NCBI GenBank assembly: GCA_963760795.1
Contig: CAVXEP010000030.1
Coordinates: 160,001-224,000 of the forward strand
DNA: 64,000 nucleotides
Source of the DNA: an uncultured delta proteobacterium
GTDB taxonomy: Bacteria > Desulfobacterota > Binatia > UBA9968
Reading direction: 5' to 3'
This document shows, in pieces, positions 4,650 to 57,017 of the stretch. The position numbers were made by a program, and so were the translations under genes. Position 1 is the first letter of the stretch. Each line of letters starts with the position of its first letter. The notes under the pieces are model-generated. The model had not been told where the DNA came from. It was given only the letters and a program-made list of their open reading frames with translations, and searched no databases.

Positions 4650-6488
4650 GGTTCTGCTGAAAAACCCCCTCAAGTTTTTTGTTTGTTCAGTTAAATCTAC
4701 GTTGACAAGCGACGATATCGCCTTCATCGTTTTCTCATGAGCGTAAGAGCCGTCGCTGCACAGAGAAGCTTTTATCATACCGACTATCTTGCTGGAGATC
4801 TTTTCGGTCCAGCCAATCGCTACCGGTTGTTTCGGGAAAAGATCTGGCCCAAGCTTTTAGAGCTTTCCCCGAAACTTGAAGCGTTGTATTGCGCCGAGAA
4901 CGGCCGGCCGGGGATCGATCCGGTGCTACTTTGCGGAGTGACGCTGCTCCAGTTCATGGAGAAAGCAGCAGATCGCTCGGCCACCGAGCGCGTGGTGTAT
5001 CATCTGGGTTGGAAGTACGCCTTAGATCTGGAACTGGATTACGCCGGGTTTCATGCCACGGTGTTAGTTTATTTTCGCGACCGGTTGGAAGACAACAAAG
5101 TCGAGCGGATGATCTTTGACGGGATAGTTAAGTTGCTGGTGGAGCTGGGATTGGTGAAGAGAAAGGGCAAGCAGCGGCTCGATAGCACGCATATCGTGGG
5201 GTACGTCAAGGCGATGAGCTTGTTGGAGTGCGCGATAGAGACGCTGCGCTTGGCGTTGGAGGATTTGAAAGTAAAAGTGGGGAGGAAAAAGCAGCCAGAA
5301 TTTTGGGACAGGTTGTGGGAACTGTATGTAGAGAGCAAACTGGATTGGCGGCTAAACAAGACCGAGCGCGACCGCCGCTATCGGCAGTGTGGGCAAGACA
5401 TGAGAGAGCTGCTGGAGTGGCTAGACGGAAACGATCCTAAGCTCGCTGGACGTGAAGCAGTGAAACTATTGCGGCGAGTCTTTGGCGAGCAGTTTGAGAT
5501 GGTCGACGGAAAGCTTGAGCTCGCCCCCAAGCGACCGCCTCGCGCGGTGCAGAACCCCCATGATTCCGATGCGCATTATGCCGATAAGAGGAGCAAGCAA
5601 TGGATCGGCTACAAGGTGCATGTAACCGAGACTGTCGATCCTCAACAACCGATCAAGAAAAAGGGCGAGCCCACCGACCATTTCATCACCGAGATGCTGA
5701 CCGTCGAAGCGGCCCAGGACGAGAAGGCTGGCTTGACCGAGACGCTCACAAGAGAACAAGCGCACCATGAGATCGAACCCCGGGCGATCTACACCGATGC
5801 AGGTTATGTGACCGAGCACACCTTAACGCAGGCGGAACAAAACGGCATGGAGTTATTAGGACCGACGCGTCCCGATCCTCACAAGGGACCCTACAATAGC
5901 GATGCGTTCCATGTCGATATCAACGAGCGCCAGGCGGTTTGTCCTCAGGGCAAGCTCAGCACGCAGTGCAGCCGCATCAAAGATAACTATATGGGAACCG
6001 AGTACTATCGCATCGAGTGGGGCAATCAATGCAATAGCTGTCCGGTACAAAAGCAATGTACGCGGTCCAAGAGTGGACGGAGAACTTTGGTCGTTGGACT
6101 GCGCCATGATCTGGTCGAGCAGCGGCGCAGAGAAATGAAACAGAAAGGTTTCTCCAAATCCATGCATCCGAGAAACGGGATTGAGGGAACCCACAGCGAG
6201 TTGGTGCGTGGGCACGCGATGAGACGGACGAAATATCGGGGCTTAAGCCGGGTCGGTTTATCGAATTACTTCATAGGTGCAGCTTGCAACGTAAAACGAT
6301 ATCTAAATCTACTCGCGTTTCAGATGAGAACGCCGCCTCTGAGCCCCGCTTAAGGGCGGAGCGCAGCTCATTTTCCTGGCTATGGCTTCGTTGAGGGTGA
6401 AACTTTCTCTGGCGTAACATTATTTGGCGATGACCACTGTTTACTAGCGGCGGTCGCGAATCAAATTCAGGGGTTTTTCAGCAGAACC
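4650..6488 (+). mobile_element. IS1182-family insertion sequence, complete
   Basis: 19-bp perfect terminal inverted repeats GGTTCTGCTGAAAAACCCC (4650-4668 / 6470-6488) flanked on both sides by TATATA. Confidence 0.9.
4737..6353 (+). CDS. IS1182-family transposase
   Basis: 'GRPGIDP', 'QRLDSTHI', 'GYKVH', 'DAGY', CPQG..C..C..C, 'RNGIEGT.SE..R.H.MRR.KYRG'. Confidence 0.9.
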   Translation: MSVRAVAAQRSFYHTDYLAGDLFGPANRYRLFREKIWPKLLELSPKLEALYCAENGRPGIDPVLLCGVTLLQFMEKAADRSATERVVYHLGWKYALDLELDYAGFHATVLVYFRDRLEDNKVERMIFDGIVKLLVELGLVKRKGKQRLDSTHIVGYVKAMSLLECAIETLRLALEDLKVKVGRKKQPEFWDRLWELYVESKLDWRLNKTERDRRYRQCGQDMRELLEWLDGNDPKLAGREAVKLLRRVFGEQFEMVDGKLELAPKRPPRAVQNPHDSDAHYADKRSKQWIGYKVHVTETVDPQQPIKKKGEPTDHFITEMLTVEAAQDEKAGLTETLTREQAHHEIEPRAIYTDAGYVTEHTLTQAEQNGMELLGPTRPDPHKGPYNSDAFHVDINERQAVCPQGKLSTQCSRIKDNYMGTEYYRIEWGNQCNSCPVQKQCTRSKSGRRTLVVGLRHDLVEQRRREMKQKGFSKSMHPRNGIEGTHSELVRGHAMRRTKYRGLSRVGLSNYFIGAACNVKRYLNLLAFQMRTPPLSPA

Positions 6489-8478: not shown

Positions 8479-9537
8479 ATGTACAACACGAAAGCTTATT
8501 CCGCTGCCAGTGCGACATCGCCGCTGGCATTGACCACAATCGGGCGGCGCGATCCGAACGAACATGATGTGCAGATCGAAATCCTTTTCTGCGGCATCTG
8601 CCACTCCGACATCCACCAGGTCCGTAATGAGTGGAGCAGCGTGATGCCCACTGTCTACCCGATTGTCCCCGGCCATGAGATCGTCGGCCGTGTCACCAAG
8701 GTCGGCGCAGCGGTTACCAAGTTCAAATCGGGCGACCGCGCCGCGGTCGGCTGCCTTGTGGACTCGGACGGGACTTGCCCGCAGTGCAAAGCTGACCTTG
8801 AGCAGTTCTGTCCGAACCAGACGCTCACCTTCAACGCCCCGGACAAGCACCTCGGAGGCGTCACCTACGGCGGCTACTCCGAAGGCATCGTCGTCGATGA
8901 ACGCTTCGTGCTGCGCGTCCCCTCCAACCTCGATCCCGCCGGAGCCGCGCCGCTCCTCTGCGCCGGCATCACGACATACTCGCCCATGAGGCACTGGGGT
9001 GTCACCAAGGGCACGAAAGTCGGTGTCGTCGGTCTCGGCGGCCTGGGCCACATGGGCGTGAAACTTGCTCATGCCTTCGGAGCTCATGTCGCTGTCTTCA
9101 CGACTTCGCCTGGCAAGCAGGAAGACGCGCTCCGACTCGGTGCCAATGAGGTCATCGTCTCCCGCAACACCGACGAAATGCAGAAGCACGCCGGCAGTTT
9201 TGATTTCATTCTCGACACCGTCTCGGCCGAGCACGACATCAACGCCTACATCCACCTGCTGCGCCTCGACGGCAACATCACGCTAGTCGGCGCTCCAGAA
9301 AAGCCGCTGGGCGTCTCCTCCTTCGCGCTGATCATGGGGCGCCGCAGTCTCTCCGGCTCGAACATCGGCGGCCTCGCCGAAACCCAGGAGATGCTCGACT
9401 TTTGCGGGGAGCATAACATCACCGCCGATGTCGAAGTCATCCCCATCCAGAAGGTCAACGAAGCCTACGAGAGACTGCTCAAGTCCGATGTGAAGTACCG
9501 CTTCTCCATCGATATGGCTTCGCTCAGGTCCGAGTGA
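8479..9537 (+). CDS. Zn-dependent NAD(P) alcohol dehydrogenase (YahK/AdhC-like)
   Basis: 'CGICHSD', 'GHEIVG', 'GLGGLGHMG', 'DVKYRFSID'. Confidence 0.93.
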   Translation: MYNTKAYSAASATSPLALTTIGRRDPNEHDVQIEILFCGICHSDIHQVRNEWSSVMPTVYPIVPGHEIVGRVTKVGAAVTKFKSGDRAAVGCLVDSDGTCPQCKADLEQFCPNQTLTFNAPDKHLGGVTYGGYSEGIVVDERFVLRVPSNLDPAGAAPLLCAGITTYSPMRHWGVTKGTKVGVVGLGGLGHMGVKLAHAFGAHVAVFTTSPGKQEDALRLGANEVIVSRNTDEMQKHAGSFDFILDTVSAEHDINAYIHLLRLDGNITLVGAPEKPLGVSSFALIMGRRSLSGSNIGGLAETQEMLDFCGEHNITADVEVIPIQKVNEAYERLLKSDVKYRFSIDMASLRSE

Positions 9538-10009: not shown

Positions 10010-11113
10010 ATGATCACCGTTCATGCCGACGTGGTTGGGAGCCTGCTCAGACCGCCGGAACTGATCGAGGCACGCAACCGGTTAGCGGCTGGCGAGATCG
10101 ATGCTTCACGCTTCAAGGAAATTGAGGATCGTGCTGTTTGTGACGCGATCGCGATACAAGAGGCGGCGGGGCTCGCAGTCGTCACCGACGGCGAAATGCG
10201 CCGGCAGTCTTTTCAGAGCCAAATGACCGCGGCAGTCGAGGGCTTCGGTGACTTCAGCATGGACGCTTTTCTTTGGGGCGAGTGGCACAATGCCCAAGGA
10301 ACAGTCCGCAAAGCGCGCCCGCCAAACCTTGGGGCAACTGGCAAACTCGTGCGAAAGCGCTGGTTATCCGCTGATGAGTTTACCTATCTGAAGAACAAAA
10401 CCAGCCGCGTTGCTAAAATCACCCTGCCGAGCCCAAGCCTTTGGGCCAACTTCTGGTCTCGCGAATACTCCCGTGCCGCGTACCCGACTCTGGATAGTTT
10501 CCTCGCAGACATCGTTCAGCTCTTGCGCGAAGAGGTTCAAGAGCTGGTGCGCTTGGGCGCTCCTTACATCCAGATCGATGCGCCCCACTACGGCCTGATG
10601 CTCGACGCTACGACACGGCGTTTCTACGAAGAGCAAGGGTGGAGTCTGGACCAATGGTTGACGCGCGGCATCGAGCTGGACAATGCGATCATCGCTGGAT
10701 TTCCAGGCGTCACTTTCGCGCTCCATCTCTGACGCGGCAATCAGGGCGGCCGGTGGCTCGCCGAGGGAGGTTACGAATCTATCAGTCGTGGGCTCTTCCA
10801 GCGGCTCAAGGCACAGCGACTCTTGCTCGAGTACGACGATGATCGCTCGGGCACGTTCGCGGCGCTCAAGGACATCCCCGAAGACAAATTCATTGTGCTC
10901 GGCTTGATAACCACTAAAACCGGCCAGCTTGAGCGCATGGATGAATTACGCCAGCGCGTCACGACCGCGAGCAAGTATTTTCCCCTTGCCCAGCTCGGCG
11001 TCAGCACGCAGTGTGGTTTTGCTTCGTCTGTTCTCGGTAACCCGGTCTCGTCTGACGAGCAGAAGCAAAAGCTCGAACTCGTCGTCCGGACTGCGCGTGA
11101 GGTTTGGGGATAA
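10010..11113 (+). CDS. cobalamin-independent methionine synthase II (MetE C-terminal-like) family protein; probable selenoprotein (UGA at 10730-10732)
   Basis: 'ADVVGSLLRP', 'VTDGEMRR', 'YIQIDAP', 'HL[UGA]RGN', 'LLEYD..RSG', 'LGLITTK', 'STQCGFAS' all in one frame. Confidence 0.85.
10745..10762 (+). promoter_or_regulatory. SECIS-like hairpin
   Basis: GGCGGCC-GGT-GGC(T)CGCC; G-first apical loop 19 nt after the UGA. Confidence 0.6.
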
Positions 11114-11446
11114 GGGACCGTCTTTATTACGCGCGGTCGAGATTGACGTCGGGCCCTCAGGTTTTGACGCTTTGATTGTTTGCTTATTGGCAACCATCCA
11201 GACCCCGGTTCACCAGTTCGGCGTCGTCGGATCGCTATTTTTGATATTCCATGTTTTCGCCCGTCCAACATTCCTCAAAATAATCAGAAACTGAGCCGCT
11301 TCCCGAACCCTGTACGTTCGCGCGCAAATTTTGCCTGAGTATTTTTCGTTGCAGTCACGACGCCTGCTCGGTTATGTTCCCATGCTTGGCAGATTCAGCG
11401 GTGGAGTTGAATTCCTCTTTACATCCTTTGTTTGAAGGAGAATCAC

Positions 11447-12733
11447 ATGGCGGATTTATTTCGGTTATCGGCGAGTGAGGCGGCGGCACGGATTCGCGAA
11501 GGCAAACTCACGTCCGAAGCTTTGGTACGCTCCTGTCTCGAGCGGATCCATTCACGAGAATCACAAGTCAAAGCATGGGTCCATTTGGACGACGATTTTG
11601 CCGTGGCGCAGGCGCGGGAATGCGACAAGAGCGCGAACCGCGGTCCGATTCACGGAGTTCCCTTCGCGGCCAAGGACATCATGGATACGGCCGACTTGCC
11701 TACCGAGTACGGATCGCCCATCTACAAAGGCAACCGTCCCGCGGCGGACGCGGCGTGCGTGGCACTGAGCCGCGCTGCCGGCGGGGTGCTTTTGGGCAAG
11801 ACGGTGACGACCGAGTTTGCCAGTCGAACTCCATTGGGAAACACGACCAATCCGCACAACCCCGCGCATACGCCCGGCGGTTCCTCCAGCGGCTCCGCCG
11901 CCGCGGTGGGCGACTTCATGGTGCCGCTGGCCTTCGGCACACAGACGGTCGGATCGGTGATCCGTCCGGCAGCGTTCTGCGGCTGCGTCGGTTACAAACC
12001 GAGCTACGGCGAAGTGAGCACGCAGGGCGTGAAGCAGAACACCGCGTCCTTCGACACTGTGGGGCTTTTCTCTCGCGCTGTGGAGGATCTCGCTTTGTTT
12101 CGCGCCGCGGTTACAGGATTCGCTCCGAAACCTCTGGCCGCCATTCCAATGAACCAACTCAAGATCGGCTTTTGCCGCATGTTTTGGGACCGCGCGGAGG
12201 AGTATACGAAAACTTTTCTCGAAGAGGCGGCAAGCACGTTAGCCAAGGCCGGAGCGAAGGTCGCCGTTTTCGATCTCGGCAAGCCGTTTGAAAACTTCGA
12301 GGCCATCGGTCGGCGCATCAATGATTACGAGTTTTCCCGCGGCCTTACCTGGGAGCGGAGTCATCATTGGAATCTTTTGAGCGAGTTCCAGCGCGACAAA
12401 TTCGCCGCACTCAATGTCTCTTACGAACAATATCGAGAAGCCGAAGGCGTGCTCGAACAGTGCCGCGGACATCTCGCCGACGCCATGAAGGATATCGACC
12501 TGCTGCTCACGCCCAGCGCTCTCGGAGAGGCTCCGGCAGGTCTCGCCAGTACGGGCGATACCTCGTTCAATATCCTGTCGACGTGGACTTACACTCCTTG
12601 CGTCACCTTACCGGTGTTTACCGGACCTACGGGTCTGCCGGTCGGCATTCAGCTCATCGGTCACCGCAACCAGGATCACCGTTTATTGGAAGGGGCCCAG
12701 GCGGTTTACCGGCTGTTCTCGAAATCCACATGA
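11447..12733 (+). CDS. amidase-signature family protein
   Basis: 'GPIHGVPFAAKD', 'GKTVTTEFA', 'TPGGSSSGSAAAV', 'GTQTVGSVIRPAAFCG'. Confidence 0.93.
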   Translation: MADLFRLSASEAAARIREGKLTSEALVRSCLERIHSRESQVKAWVHLDDDFAVAQARECDKSANRGPIHGVPFAAKDIMDTADLPTEYGSPIYKGNRPAADAACVALSRAAGGVLLGKTVTTEFASRTPLGNTTNPHNPAHTPGGSSSGSAAAVGDFMVPLAFGTQTVGSVIRPAAFCGCVGYKPSYGEVSTQGVKQNTASFDTVGLFSRAVEDLALFRAAVTGFAPKPLAAIPMNQLKIGFCRMFWDRAEEYTKTFLEEAASTLAKAGAKVAVFDLGKPFENFEAIGRRINDYEFSRGLTWERSHHWNLLSEFQRDKFAALNVSYEQYREAEGVLEQCRGHLADAMKDIDLLLTPSALGEAPAGLASTGDTSFNILSTWTYTPCVTLPVFTGPTGLPVGIQLIGHRNQDHRLLEGAQAVYRLFSKST

Positions 12734-55756: not shown

Positions 55757-57017
55757 ATGGAAAATGCTCCGGAAGAAACCACCACCGAACCCACAGGCAA
55801 GACCGCGATCTTCTCGATTGTCTGTGGCGCCCATTTTTTGAATCATTTTCAGTCGTCGATGCTGGGCGTGCTCTATCCGCTGATGATGCGCGATCTCGGC
55901 ATCGGTTTTGTCGCCATCGGTGCGATTACCGCGGTTTACGGCTTTGTCGGCAATTTTCTCCAGGCCTTTTACGGATTCATCGTGCCTTACGTGCGCCGCG
56001 GCGTGATCTTAGGCGTCGGCAACATTTTGCTTGGCATCTCGGTCGTCGCCACCGGCTTCGCCTCCAGCTACCCCTTTATTATGTTCACGCGGGTGCTCGG
56101 CGGCGTCGGCACCAGCCCGCAGCATCCGGTGGGCTCGACGGCGCTGGCGTCCTACTTTGGCAAAGCGCGCGGCCGCGCCCTGGCGTTTCACTCGACGGCG
56201 GCCAATCTCGGCAGTCTGGTCGCACCGATCGTCGCCGCGGTGCTGGTGGCTCATATAGGTTGGCGCGCGATCTTTTGGATCGTCGGTATTCCCAGCATAC
56301 TCATGGGCTTCGCCTGTCTGGCTCTGCGCGACACGATTCAAGCTCAACCCGGCGCAAATCCAAAAATCGAAGCTGGCGCCCATGGGTTGGGACGCTTACA
56401 AGCGCTGTCTCAAGAACAAAAACATCCTGCTGATCTCGTTGGTCTTGATGGTCGGCGGCGCTGGCCTCGGCCATGGCATCAACGAAACCTACATCGTGCC
56501 CCATTTCATCAATGACCTGAAAGTCGACATGGCCTATGCCGCCTTTCTGTTCACGCTGATTCAGGTCGGCGGTTTGCTCGGGCCCATGGCCTGGGGCTGG
56601 ATCTCCGACCGCTTTCATCGCACCCGCACGCTGCAAGTATCACTGCTGCTTTCGGCGGGCTCGACGGTCTGGCTTAGCCTGCAAGATCATGTATCCATCG
56701 GCTTGTTCGCTAACTTGATTCTCTATGGCGCGGTGGTCACTTCGCGCCAAACGTTGACTCAAGCACTGCTCACCGACGTCGCCGATGAAGACATTCTCGA
56801 CGCCGCTTTCAGTCTCTACTATTGCATCGGTTTCATCATGTCGCCGTTTTGGACGGTTCTGGCCGGCTGGCTGATGAGCACTTCGGGATTTCAAACCACC
56901 TTTGGCGTTATCTCTTGTTCCTATTTTCTGGGCATGACGTTGCTCCTCTTCTTCCGCGAACCGGTGAAGAAGTTAAGCCCGCTGAGGGCCGGAGCCGGCG
57001 CGTTCGTAAAGCGATAA
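55757..57017 (+). CDS. MFS transporter (Fsr-like), +1 frameshift near 56360-56381
   Basis: 'HFLNH', 'QHPVG', 'RGRALAFH' in ORF1; 'GWISDRF' in ORF2; together about 12 TM. Confidence 0.8.

Follow-up and report, generated by a model that had tools for sequence, protein, structure and literature searches.

The DNA analysed here, called the window in the following, is a stretch of 64 kb, and the gene of interest lies on its plus strand at positions 10010-11113. A single frame of 367 codons runs there from an ATG at 10010 to a TAA at 11111-11113. Its sole in-frame stop is a TGA at 10730-10732, which stands in the context H239-L240-[TGA]-R242-G243-N244. According to the original prediction, one reading frame is interrupted by the TGA alone and gene callers split the gene, and both statements proved correct: 10010-11113 contains no further in-frame stop, the standard ORF listing gives a 240-aa ORF (10010-10732) and a 96-aa ORF with a TTG start (10823-11113), and 240-aa pieces of the same kind are found in public databases. 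Reading through the TGA yields a product of 367 aa. Its N-terminal part (codons 1-240, 10010-10729, plus strand) is the 240-aa protein of the gene callers and is supported by the frame, by the Pfam match PF01717 and by the alignment with MetE; the C-terminal part (codons 242-367 and the TAA, 10733-11113, plus strand), supported by frame, selection and alignment, can be reached only via read-through of the TGA. The protein carries the motifs HL[U]RGN, LEYD (with E274) and QCGF (with C335), where U stands for the proposed selenocysteine (Sec). TGA closes 15 of the 38 Pfam-supported ORFs in the window and so serves the source organism as a regular stop codon; the MetE-like gene itself terminates with TGA in five of the related loci described below (L007, L012, L014, L015 and L018).

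The window gene product is a single-barrel (beta-alpha)8 enzyme of the MetE catalytic-domain superfamily. The Pfam domain Meth_synt_2 (PF01717) covers residues 8-339 of the read-through product across the TGA and passes its cut-off (57.9 bits against 21; E = 1.4e-15). The best NCBIfam families were PRK06520 (245.4, cut-off 313) and PRK06233 (226.8, cut-off 576), which both remained under the curated cut-offs, and TIGR01371, the model of the canonical two-barrel MetE, reached 39 bits against a cut-off of 930. PF01717 is the only Pfam match within the 367 residues. The N-terminal folate-binding barrel (Meth_synt_1) is absent from them, which makes the protein a "core" relative of MetE with one barrel rather than a true MetE. 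The nearest solved structure by sequence is 1YPX from Listeria, with an E-value of 1e-50 for the single sequence and 6e-97 with a profile of 39 sequences, and this alignment, too, runs across the TGA; next among the structure matches come MesD (3RPD) and the C-terminal MetE barrels. An AlphaFold model computed from the 39-sequence alignment had a mean pLDDT of 93.7, and a Foldseek search with this model returned 1YPX (TM 0.86 on the target), the MetE C-barrels (TM about 0.75 on the query) and MesD 3RPD.

The UGA had been predicted to sit on a metal-ligand Cys, which the profile alignment to Thermotoga maritima MetE (1xpg_A) bears out. H239 (10724-10726) and U241 (10730-10732, the proposed Sec codon and second zinc-ligand position) fall on chain positions H650 and C652, and C335 (11012-11014) falls on C736; with a constant offset of 32 subtracted from the chain numbering, these are His618, Cys620 and Cys704. 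The zinc ligands described for the T. maritima enzyme are His618, Cys620, Glu642 and Cys704 (PMC539065), and their equivalents in Escherichia coli MetE are H641, C643, E665 and C726 (PMC7857596). U241 occupies the position of Cys620 in the former and of Cys643 in the latter. The remaining ligand, E274 (10829-10831), lies outside the MetE profile alignment and is assigned by its invariance in the 39-sequence alignment and by its place at a strand end in the AlphaFold model, just as Glu642 closes strand beta6 in MetE. The strands of the model that finish at residues 240, 274 and 333 agree with beta5, beta6 and beta8 as described for MetE (PMC539065), and the protein accordingly shows the His/Cys/Glu/Cys arrangement at the ends of strands 5, 6 and 8 with U241 standing for Cys. 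The homocysteine site is present likewise: S11 (10040-10042), E62 (10193-10195) and D190 (10577-10579) align with chain residues S443, E494 and D609, that is with Ser411, Glu462 and Asp577, which bind homocysteine in T. maritima MetE (PMC539065). S11, E62, D190, H239, E274 and C335 are all invariant in the 39-sequence alignment. A product stopping at L240 would end just past strand 5, without strands 6-8 and without two of the four ligands.

A scan of a genome collection with the window protein returned 63 related loci. The TGA is found at the same codon in 23 of them (L001-L018, L020, L021, L024, L025 and L027; 61-93% identity to the window protein), while 39 more distant loci have TGC or TGT at codon 241 and the remaining one (L058) stops short of this site. 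Two pairs of TGA-bearing loci come from the same MAG (L014/L024 and L020/L021), so that the 23 loci represent 21 MAGs. Twenty-one of the loci span the gene in a single frame, and none of them has an in-frame stop other than this TGA ahead of the normal terminator; L024, which runs past the end of its contig, likewise shows no stop apart from the TGA, and L027 contains frameshifts. That close relatives might all carry TGC or TGT had been named as an outcome that would speak against Sec. The opposite was found, as every relative in the genome collection with at least 69% identity carries the TGA, and the search for homologs with a conserved TGA/Cys pair and a hairpin, which had also been suggested, yielded the 23 TGA and 39 TGC/TGT loci. 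When the database was searched with the full-length read-through product, 119 of the best 120 matches were full-length Cys forms (61-67% identity), all with Cys at position 241, and the remaining one was the 240-aa piece of the window itself. An in-frame UGA where homologs have Cys, as is expected of a selenoprotein gene, is therefore present.

A further search started from the 240-aa piece. Its best 120 matches had 71-100% identity, 112 of them were exactly 240 aa long and 118 ended in H-[LIVM]; where names were given, they read "hypothetical protein [Candidatus Binatia bacterium]" or were MetE names. Matches of such near-uniform length indicate that the Sec clade has many members and that public gene calls truncate it throughout. 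In public metagenomes, more than 100 clusters at 90% identity stop exactly at codon 241.

The codons after the TGA are under purifying selection. Pairwise dN/dS values (13 pairs) were 0.04-0.19 upstream of the TGA and 0.09-0.29 downstream, and pN/pS from ten separate pairs was 0.21 in the N-terminal part (codons 1-240), 0.23 in codons 242-271 and 0.26 in codons 272-367. The first in-frame ATG, GTG or TTG past the TGA lies anywhere from codon 258 to codon 297 among 21 copies, without a conserved restart codon. Because codons 242-271 are constrained ahead of any restart, re-initiation cannot explain the constraint. Directly behind the TGA, R242, G243 and N244 show synonymous changes only, with the exception of Cys242 in L020 and L021. 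Translation of the sequence past the UGA, a further property expected of a selenoprotein gene, is thus visible as constraint at the protein level.

Downstream of the TGA, a hairpin with a G-first loop had been predicted at a distance of 19 nt and was found at 10745-10762 on the plus strand, where folding and covariation support a SECIS-like element. It consists of the 5' arm GGCGGCC (10745-10751), the loop GGU (10752-10754) and the 3' arm GGCUCGCC (10755-10762) with a bulged U at 10758, and 19 nt separate the TGA from the loop. The 24-nt hairpin segment of the window has a folding energy of -11.5 kcal/mol. When the 71 nt behind the TGA were folded by themselves, the z-score was +0.62, and equal or better folds came from 140 of 200 shuffles; such a single-sequence score is uninformative in the GC-rich DNA of the window. 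As the window hairpin is no better than shuffled sequence by energy, the case for it rests on comparison. The hairpin is present 19 nt after the TGA in all 24 TGA copies (the window and the 23 loci), with the loop GGU in all but L013, which has GUU, and with energies from -7.7 to -14.2 kcal/mol (mean -11.7). At 46 Cys-form sites the same 24-nt segment has a mean of -2.8 kcal/mol, and three of these sites (L046, L048 and L055) reach -10 kcal/mol or lower; Cys-form genes are mostly without the hairpin. The bSECIS model asks for an apical loop of 3-9 nt, an upper stem of 4-16 bp, a G in the first two loop positions, a UGA-to-loop distance of 16-37 nt and a minimum free energy of at most -7.5 kcal/mol (PMC13188914). 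The predicted fit to bacterial SECIS geometry holds by these values in 24 of 24 TGA copies; the stem comprises 7-8 pairs, interrupted in most copies by a bulge of 1 nt, and copies of the window type have just three pairs above the bulge.

Across the TGA copies the hairpin is conserved with compensatory changes. Covariation was assessed on an alignment of 21 sequences (18 distinct rows), in which two bulge registers were counted explicitly. With the bulge at column 31, 93.7% of the cells are paired, compared with 23-75% when the partners are slid by one to three columns. Pair 18-30 occurs as C-G (nine rows), G-U (two), A-U (one) and G-C (one); it is unpaired in five rows, including the four window-type rows, which adopt the alternative register (bulge at column 29). 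In column shuffles, 7 of 500 attained the observed pairing score, a result which is suggestive and not to be read as a probability. Synonymous diversity points to the same place: its mean is 0.51 over 238 scorable codons, and the lowest five-codon stretch is found at codons 243-248. In 20 of 21 copies the loop-forming codon of Arg248 reads CGG, and the Cys forms have CGA, CGC or CGT there. RNAalifold did not recover the hairpin from the 21-sequence alignment and proposed a different weak structure (-4.3 kcal/mol), since the bulge changes register (column 29 versus 31) between copies. A search of Rfam at permissive thresholds gave no SECIS family and two chance-level matches only. The 9-mer GCCGGTGGC occurs five times in the window with 0.78 occurrences expected, and of these sites only the one in the MetE-like gene has a TGA at the right distance.

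A tree of 57 rows was built for the phylogeny. Besides the window gene it includes 20 Sec loci, 20 Cys loci out of 39 and 16 full-length database hits out of 119. Three Sec loci were excluded: L021 is a duplicate of L020, L024 covers the gene in part and L027 carries frameshifts. Twenty of the 21 Sec rows form one clade (SH-aLRT 100), inside which the Cys forms P0002 and P0007 are nested. L020, from an Acidobacteriota MAG and with the motif H-L-U-C-G-N, stands apart from this main Sec clade. At least four changes between Sec and Cys are required on the tree. Cys forms nested in a Sec clade are the usual pattern of Sec/Cys families. Ten Sec loci are labelled Candidatus Binatia, and the other hosts are MAGs named "Deltaproteobacteria" or "delta proteobacterium", two Thermodesulfobacteriota, one Udaeobacter and one Acidobacteriota.

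In the window, the MetE-like gene lies between genes for a zinc alcohol dehydrogenase (8479-9537) and an amidase (11432-12733), and the amidase is also found downstream of it in L001, the nearest relative of the window gene (93% identity). In nine loci of about 69% identity the gene is adjoined by a TauE/SafE permease and a PEMT/ICMT-like methyltransferase, in two of them also by a PLP enzyme. The gene neighborhood does not fix the substrate. No riboswitch was found in the window, and a promoter scan upstream of the MetE-like gene found nothing.

The sequence examined was also screened for Sec machinery. Rfam and tRNA scans detected no tRNA-Sec in the 64-kb window, and a scan of 26 loci (22 of the 23 with TGA, together with L019, L022, L023 and L027's neighbors) gave none either. 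Pfam domains of SelA, SelB and SelD were absent from the 52 ORFs of the window as well as from 208 ORFs in flanks of at most 10 kb from 23 related loci. With about 370 kb examined in total, this absence is weak negative evidence. A second TGA-interrupted gene was sought among 44 candidates in the window and 26 filtered candidates across the window and the 23 loci, eight of which were read through and scanned for domains; in none of the eight does a domain cross the TGA, and no second gene of this kind was found in the window or in the 23 loci. A SelO gene in L005 was considered as a sign of the Sec trait and rejected, as its product ends in ...FCGT before the stop and is a Cys form.

Taken as a whole, the evidence makes us confident that the window gene encodes a 367-residue enzyme of the MetE superfamily whose UGA at codon 241 is decoded as Sec within the zinc site. 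The UGA most likely encodes Sec in place of a zinc-binding Cys, in which case the division of the protein by gene callers is an error. Insertion of Sec and not of some other residue at this codon is our inference. By the likely route, with the ribosome positioned at the UGA, SelB and its Sec-tRNA(Sec) would bind the hairpin that lies 19 nt downstream, and translation would continue past codon 241 so that strands 6-8 of the barrel are made as well. In the H-x-C...E...C site, Sec would then replace Cys and place a selenolate on the zinc where MetE has the thiolate of the Cys620 type. The zinc site is expected to bind and deprotonate a homocysteine-like thiol amino acid, which would accept the methyl group. 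The homocysteine pocket is intact, which speaks for homocysteine itself or a close analogue in the role of methyl acceptor, and the methyl donor is probably not a methyl-folate bound in the manner of MetE, because the N-terminal folate barrel is absent.

Two benefits of Sec at this site are plausible. The selenolate may be a softer and more strongly donating ligand which renders the bound thiolate more reactive, or it may allow the zinc site to recover from oxidation. The zinc-site cysteines of MetE-type enzymes are prominent targets of oxidative S-thiolation, with YxjG among the affected proteins (PMC4360819). A more radical role, in which the selenolate itself would take the methyl group and pass it on, standing in for a corrinoid, appears improbable to us.

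Other explanations of the interrupted frame have to be weighed against Sec. The UGA might be recoded to Cys or to another standard residue, either by a Cys-charged tRNA-Sec-like tRNA with a SelB-like factor, a combination reported in some bacteria, or by near-cognate read-through stimulated by the hairpin. Recoding of this kind would account equally well for the conserved TGA, the hairpin and the selection downstream, and neither selA nor selD was found in the window or the flanks. However, nothing observed favors it over Sec, and the hairpin follows the standard SECIS model including the G-G/U start of the loop. Furthermore, Cys forms with an ordinary TGC are nested in the clade, so that a more expensive way of arriving at Cys by recoding could hardly be expected to persist, and we regard this explanation as unlikely. 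Still less probable is a split gene, in which the 240-aa protein and a separately initiated C-terminal protein would together form one barrel. Split MetE proteins are known in archaea (PMC7857596), and the two ORFs given by the callers, 10010-10732 and 10823-11113, would suit such an arrangement. Yet the restart is not conserved (first start at codons 258-297) while codons 242-271 have a pN/pS of 0.23, and in every copy the cut falls exactly on the ligand codon.

A pseudogene or a sequencing error, that is a nonsense mutation or a wrong base call in one genome, deserves mention since two other genes in the window are broken (a TonB receptor and an MFS transporter) and frameshifts occur in related long-read MAGs (L027). 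The broken neighbors carry frameshifts caused by indels, however, and not substitutions that create in-frame stops. The same TGA recurs in 23 loci from 21 MAGs of different projects, the 21 one-frame loci are without any other lesion, 118 of the best 120 matches to the fragment end at the same residue, and both halves of the gene are under purifying selection. On the grounds of conservation and selection we reject this explanation, to which we attach next to no probability.

Decoding of UGA 241 as Sec would define a selenoprotein family, apparently uncatalogued, with Sec at the position of a catalytic-zinc ligand. A review from 2026 (PMC13188914) lists 119 families of prokaryotic selenoproteins in what it calls "the most comprehensive inventory". 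Table 1 of this inventory has no MetE-like entry among the 119 families, and the survey supplements could list low-confidence candidates. The deep-Sep paper (PMC12013277) makes no mention of methionine synthase, MetE, homocysteine or PF01717, and a full-text search of the literature gave nothing relevant that links Sec or selenoproteins to cobalamin-independent methionine synthase, methionine synthase II, PF01717 or Binatota/Binatia. In NCBIfam release 20, no selenoprotein model matches the window protein.

Redox chemistry is, to our knowledge, the role of Sec in nearly all known selenoproteins. Sec on a Lewis-acid zinc in a methyl-transfer enzyme, if confirmed, would widen the known roles of selenium in proteins, and a MetE-like Sec protein would offer a natural Zn-Se site for study. 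We see about an even chance that the window gene represents both the first selenoprotein of the MetE/UroD-like superfamily and the first natural enzyme with Sec on a catalytic zinc, where it would raise thiolate reactivity or the reversibility of oxidation, in widespread soil bacteria, the Binatia and their neighbors. The Sec reading implies a selenocysteine trait in largely uncultured soil lineages. It also means that the annotation of Binatia and related soil bacteria is systematically wrong at the MetE-like gene, and reconstructions of methionine pathways may miss or miscount it.

The nearest characterized relatives of the window protein are Listeria 1YPX and the "methionine synthase II" proteins YxjG and YxjH of Bacillus subtilis. 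They have the same length, a single barrel and the same H-x-C-R-G-N, L-E-Y-D and Q-C-G-F motifs, but a Cys where the window gene has UGA. Identity between 1YPX and the window protein is about 40% in the HMMER alignment and 26% in the structural alignment of Foldseek. The function of this type has been deduced from methionine-responsive regulation and from the yxjH-luxS operon; it is methionine-regulated and in lactobacilli co-transcribed with luxS (PMC6004538). In comparison with MetE, the zinc (His/Cys/Glu/Cys) and homocysteine (Ser/Glu/Asp) positions of the catalytic barrel have their equivalents in the window protein, E274 by invariance and model, whereas the N-terminal Meth_synt_1 barrel and with it the folate-binding architecture of MetE is missing, and the ligand Cys620/Cys643 faces a proposed Sec.

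The core (folate-independent) methionine synthases MesA-MesD resemble the window protein in having a single barrel, about 340-390 aa and the same zinc and homocysteine sites. In MesC, the equivalent of the Cys643 ligand is usually His (PMC7857596), so this ligand position is known to vary. In PMC7857596, no Sec form is described for MesA-MesD. Membership in MesD was considered and rejected: the match to 3RPD (E = 4.7e-07 for the single sequence, 1.7e-22 with the profile) is distant and far behind 1YPX, and no gene for the partner protein MesX (DUF1852) is present among the 52 window ORFs.

Among known selenoproteins, two groups invite comparison. The Sec-containing arsenite methyltransferase and other selenoproteins with methyltransferase domains are likewise linked to methyl transfer (PMC13188914, Table 1), but they are SAM-dependent enzymes with a Rossmann fold unrelated to that of the window protein, with UxxG or CxxU motifs and a Sec which is no zinc ligand. 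Closer in the role of Sec are FdhA (Mo/W) and the [NiFeSe] hydrogenases, in which Sec replaces a Cys metal ligand, as proposed for the window protein, and whose UGA is followed by a hairpin just downstream in the coding region, as in the window gene (PMC13188914). These are redox enzymes with redox-active metals, whereas the window protein is predicted to use a Lewis-acid zinc for methyl transfer.

Within the window, the Sec gene lies about 3.7 kb downstream of a DDE transposase gene (DUF772 and DDE_Tnp_1_6; 4737-6353, + strand), and its C-terminal part is overlapped by an antisense ORF of 166 amino acids (10771-11271, - strand). A family match was not found for this antisense ORF, which is most likely spurious and which gene callers could pick instead of the true C-terminal half of the Sec gene.

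Comparison of the related loci revealed a recurrent gene neighborhood. Immediately downstream of the Sec gene, nine of them (L006, L007, L008, L009, L010, L014, L016, L017, and L018) carry a convergent gene encoding a TauE/SafE-family permease and a gene for a PEMT/ICMT-like membrane methyltransferase; L010 and L014 additionally carry a gene encoding a PLP-dependent enzyme. These permease, methyltransferase and PLP enzyme neighbors may hint at sulfur or selenium amino acid metabolism.

A separate Sec lineage is represented by two copies in one Acidobacteriota MAG (L020 and L021), which are identical across the 60 nt compared. Here the TGA is directly followed by TGC (H-L-U-C-G-N; 10137-10142 in L020 and 10727-10732 in L021), a gene of the CMD/AhpD family is located immediately upstream and transposase genes are close by. 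This lineage could have arisen by independent gain or by transfer.

Further ORFs in the window are broken. The gene for a TonB-dependent receptor (Plug and beta-barrel; 53498-55549, + strand) shifts frame around 53900-54010, and past these shifts the conserved sequence resumes in a different frame. A frameshift divides the gene for an MFS transporter (55757-57017, + strand) into the ORFs 55757-56515 and 56382-57017, which overlap and are read in different frames. Taken together with the frameshifted copy in the TGA-bearing locus L027, the frameshift in the MFS transporter suggests either indel errors of long-read sequencing or gene decay.

The window also contains type II antitoxin genes (CopG, MazE; 257-914), a complete rRNA operon comprising 16S, tRNA-Ile, tRNA-Ala, 23S, and 5S (40909-46397, - strand), and an ORF encoding a fusion protein of 985 amino acids that joins adenylation and carrier domains to a luciferase-like monooxygenase (29556-32513, + strand). 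A related AMP-binding/PP-binding gene is present near the Sec gene of L027.

Among the Cys-form loci, six (L030, L033, L051, L052, L054, and L059) harbor two or three Cys-form paralogs of the MetE-like family each, encoded on the same strand and spaced approximately 1.1-1.4 kb apart. The Cys-form gene (TGC) of locus L055, from an Actinomycetes MAG, possesses a hairpin of seven pairs with the loop GCU (10733-10756, -10.1 kcal/mol), in the same position as the hairpin of the Sec copies. This hairpin may be left over from a Sec ancestor, or it may have arisen by chance from the shared G-R-W-L codons.
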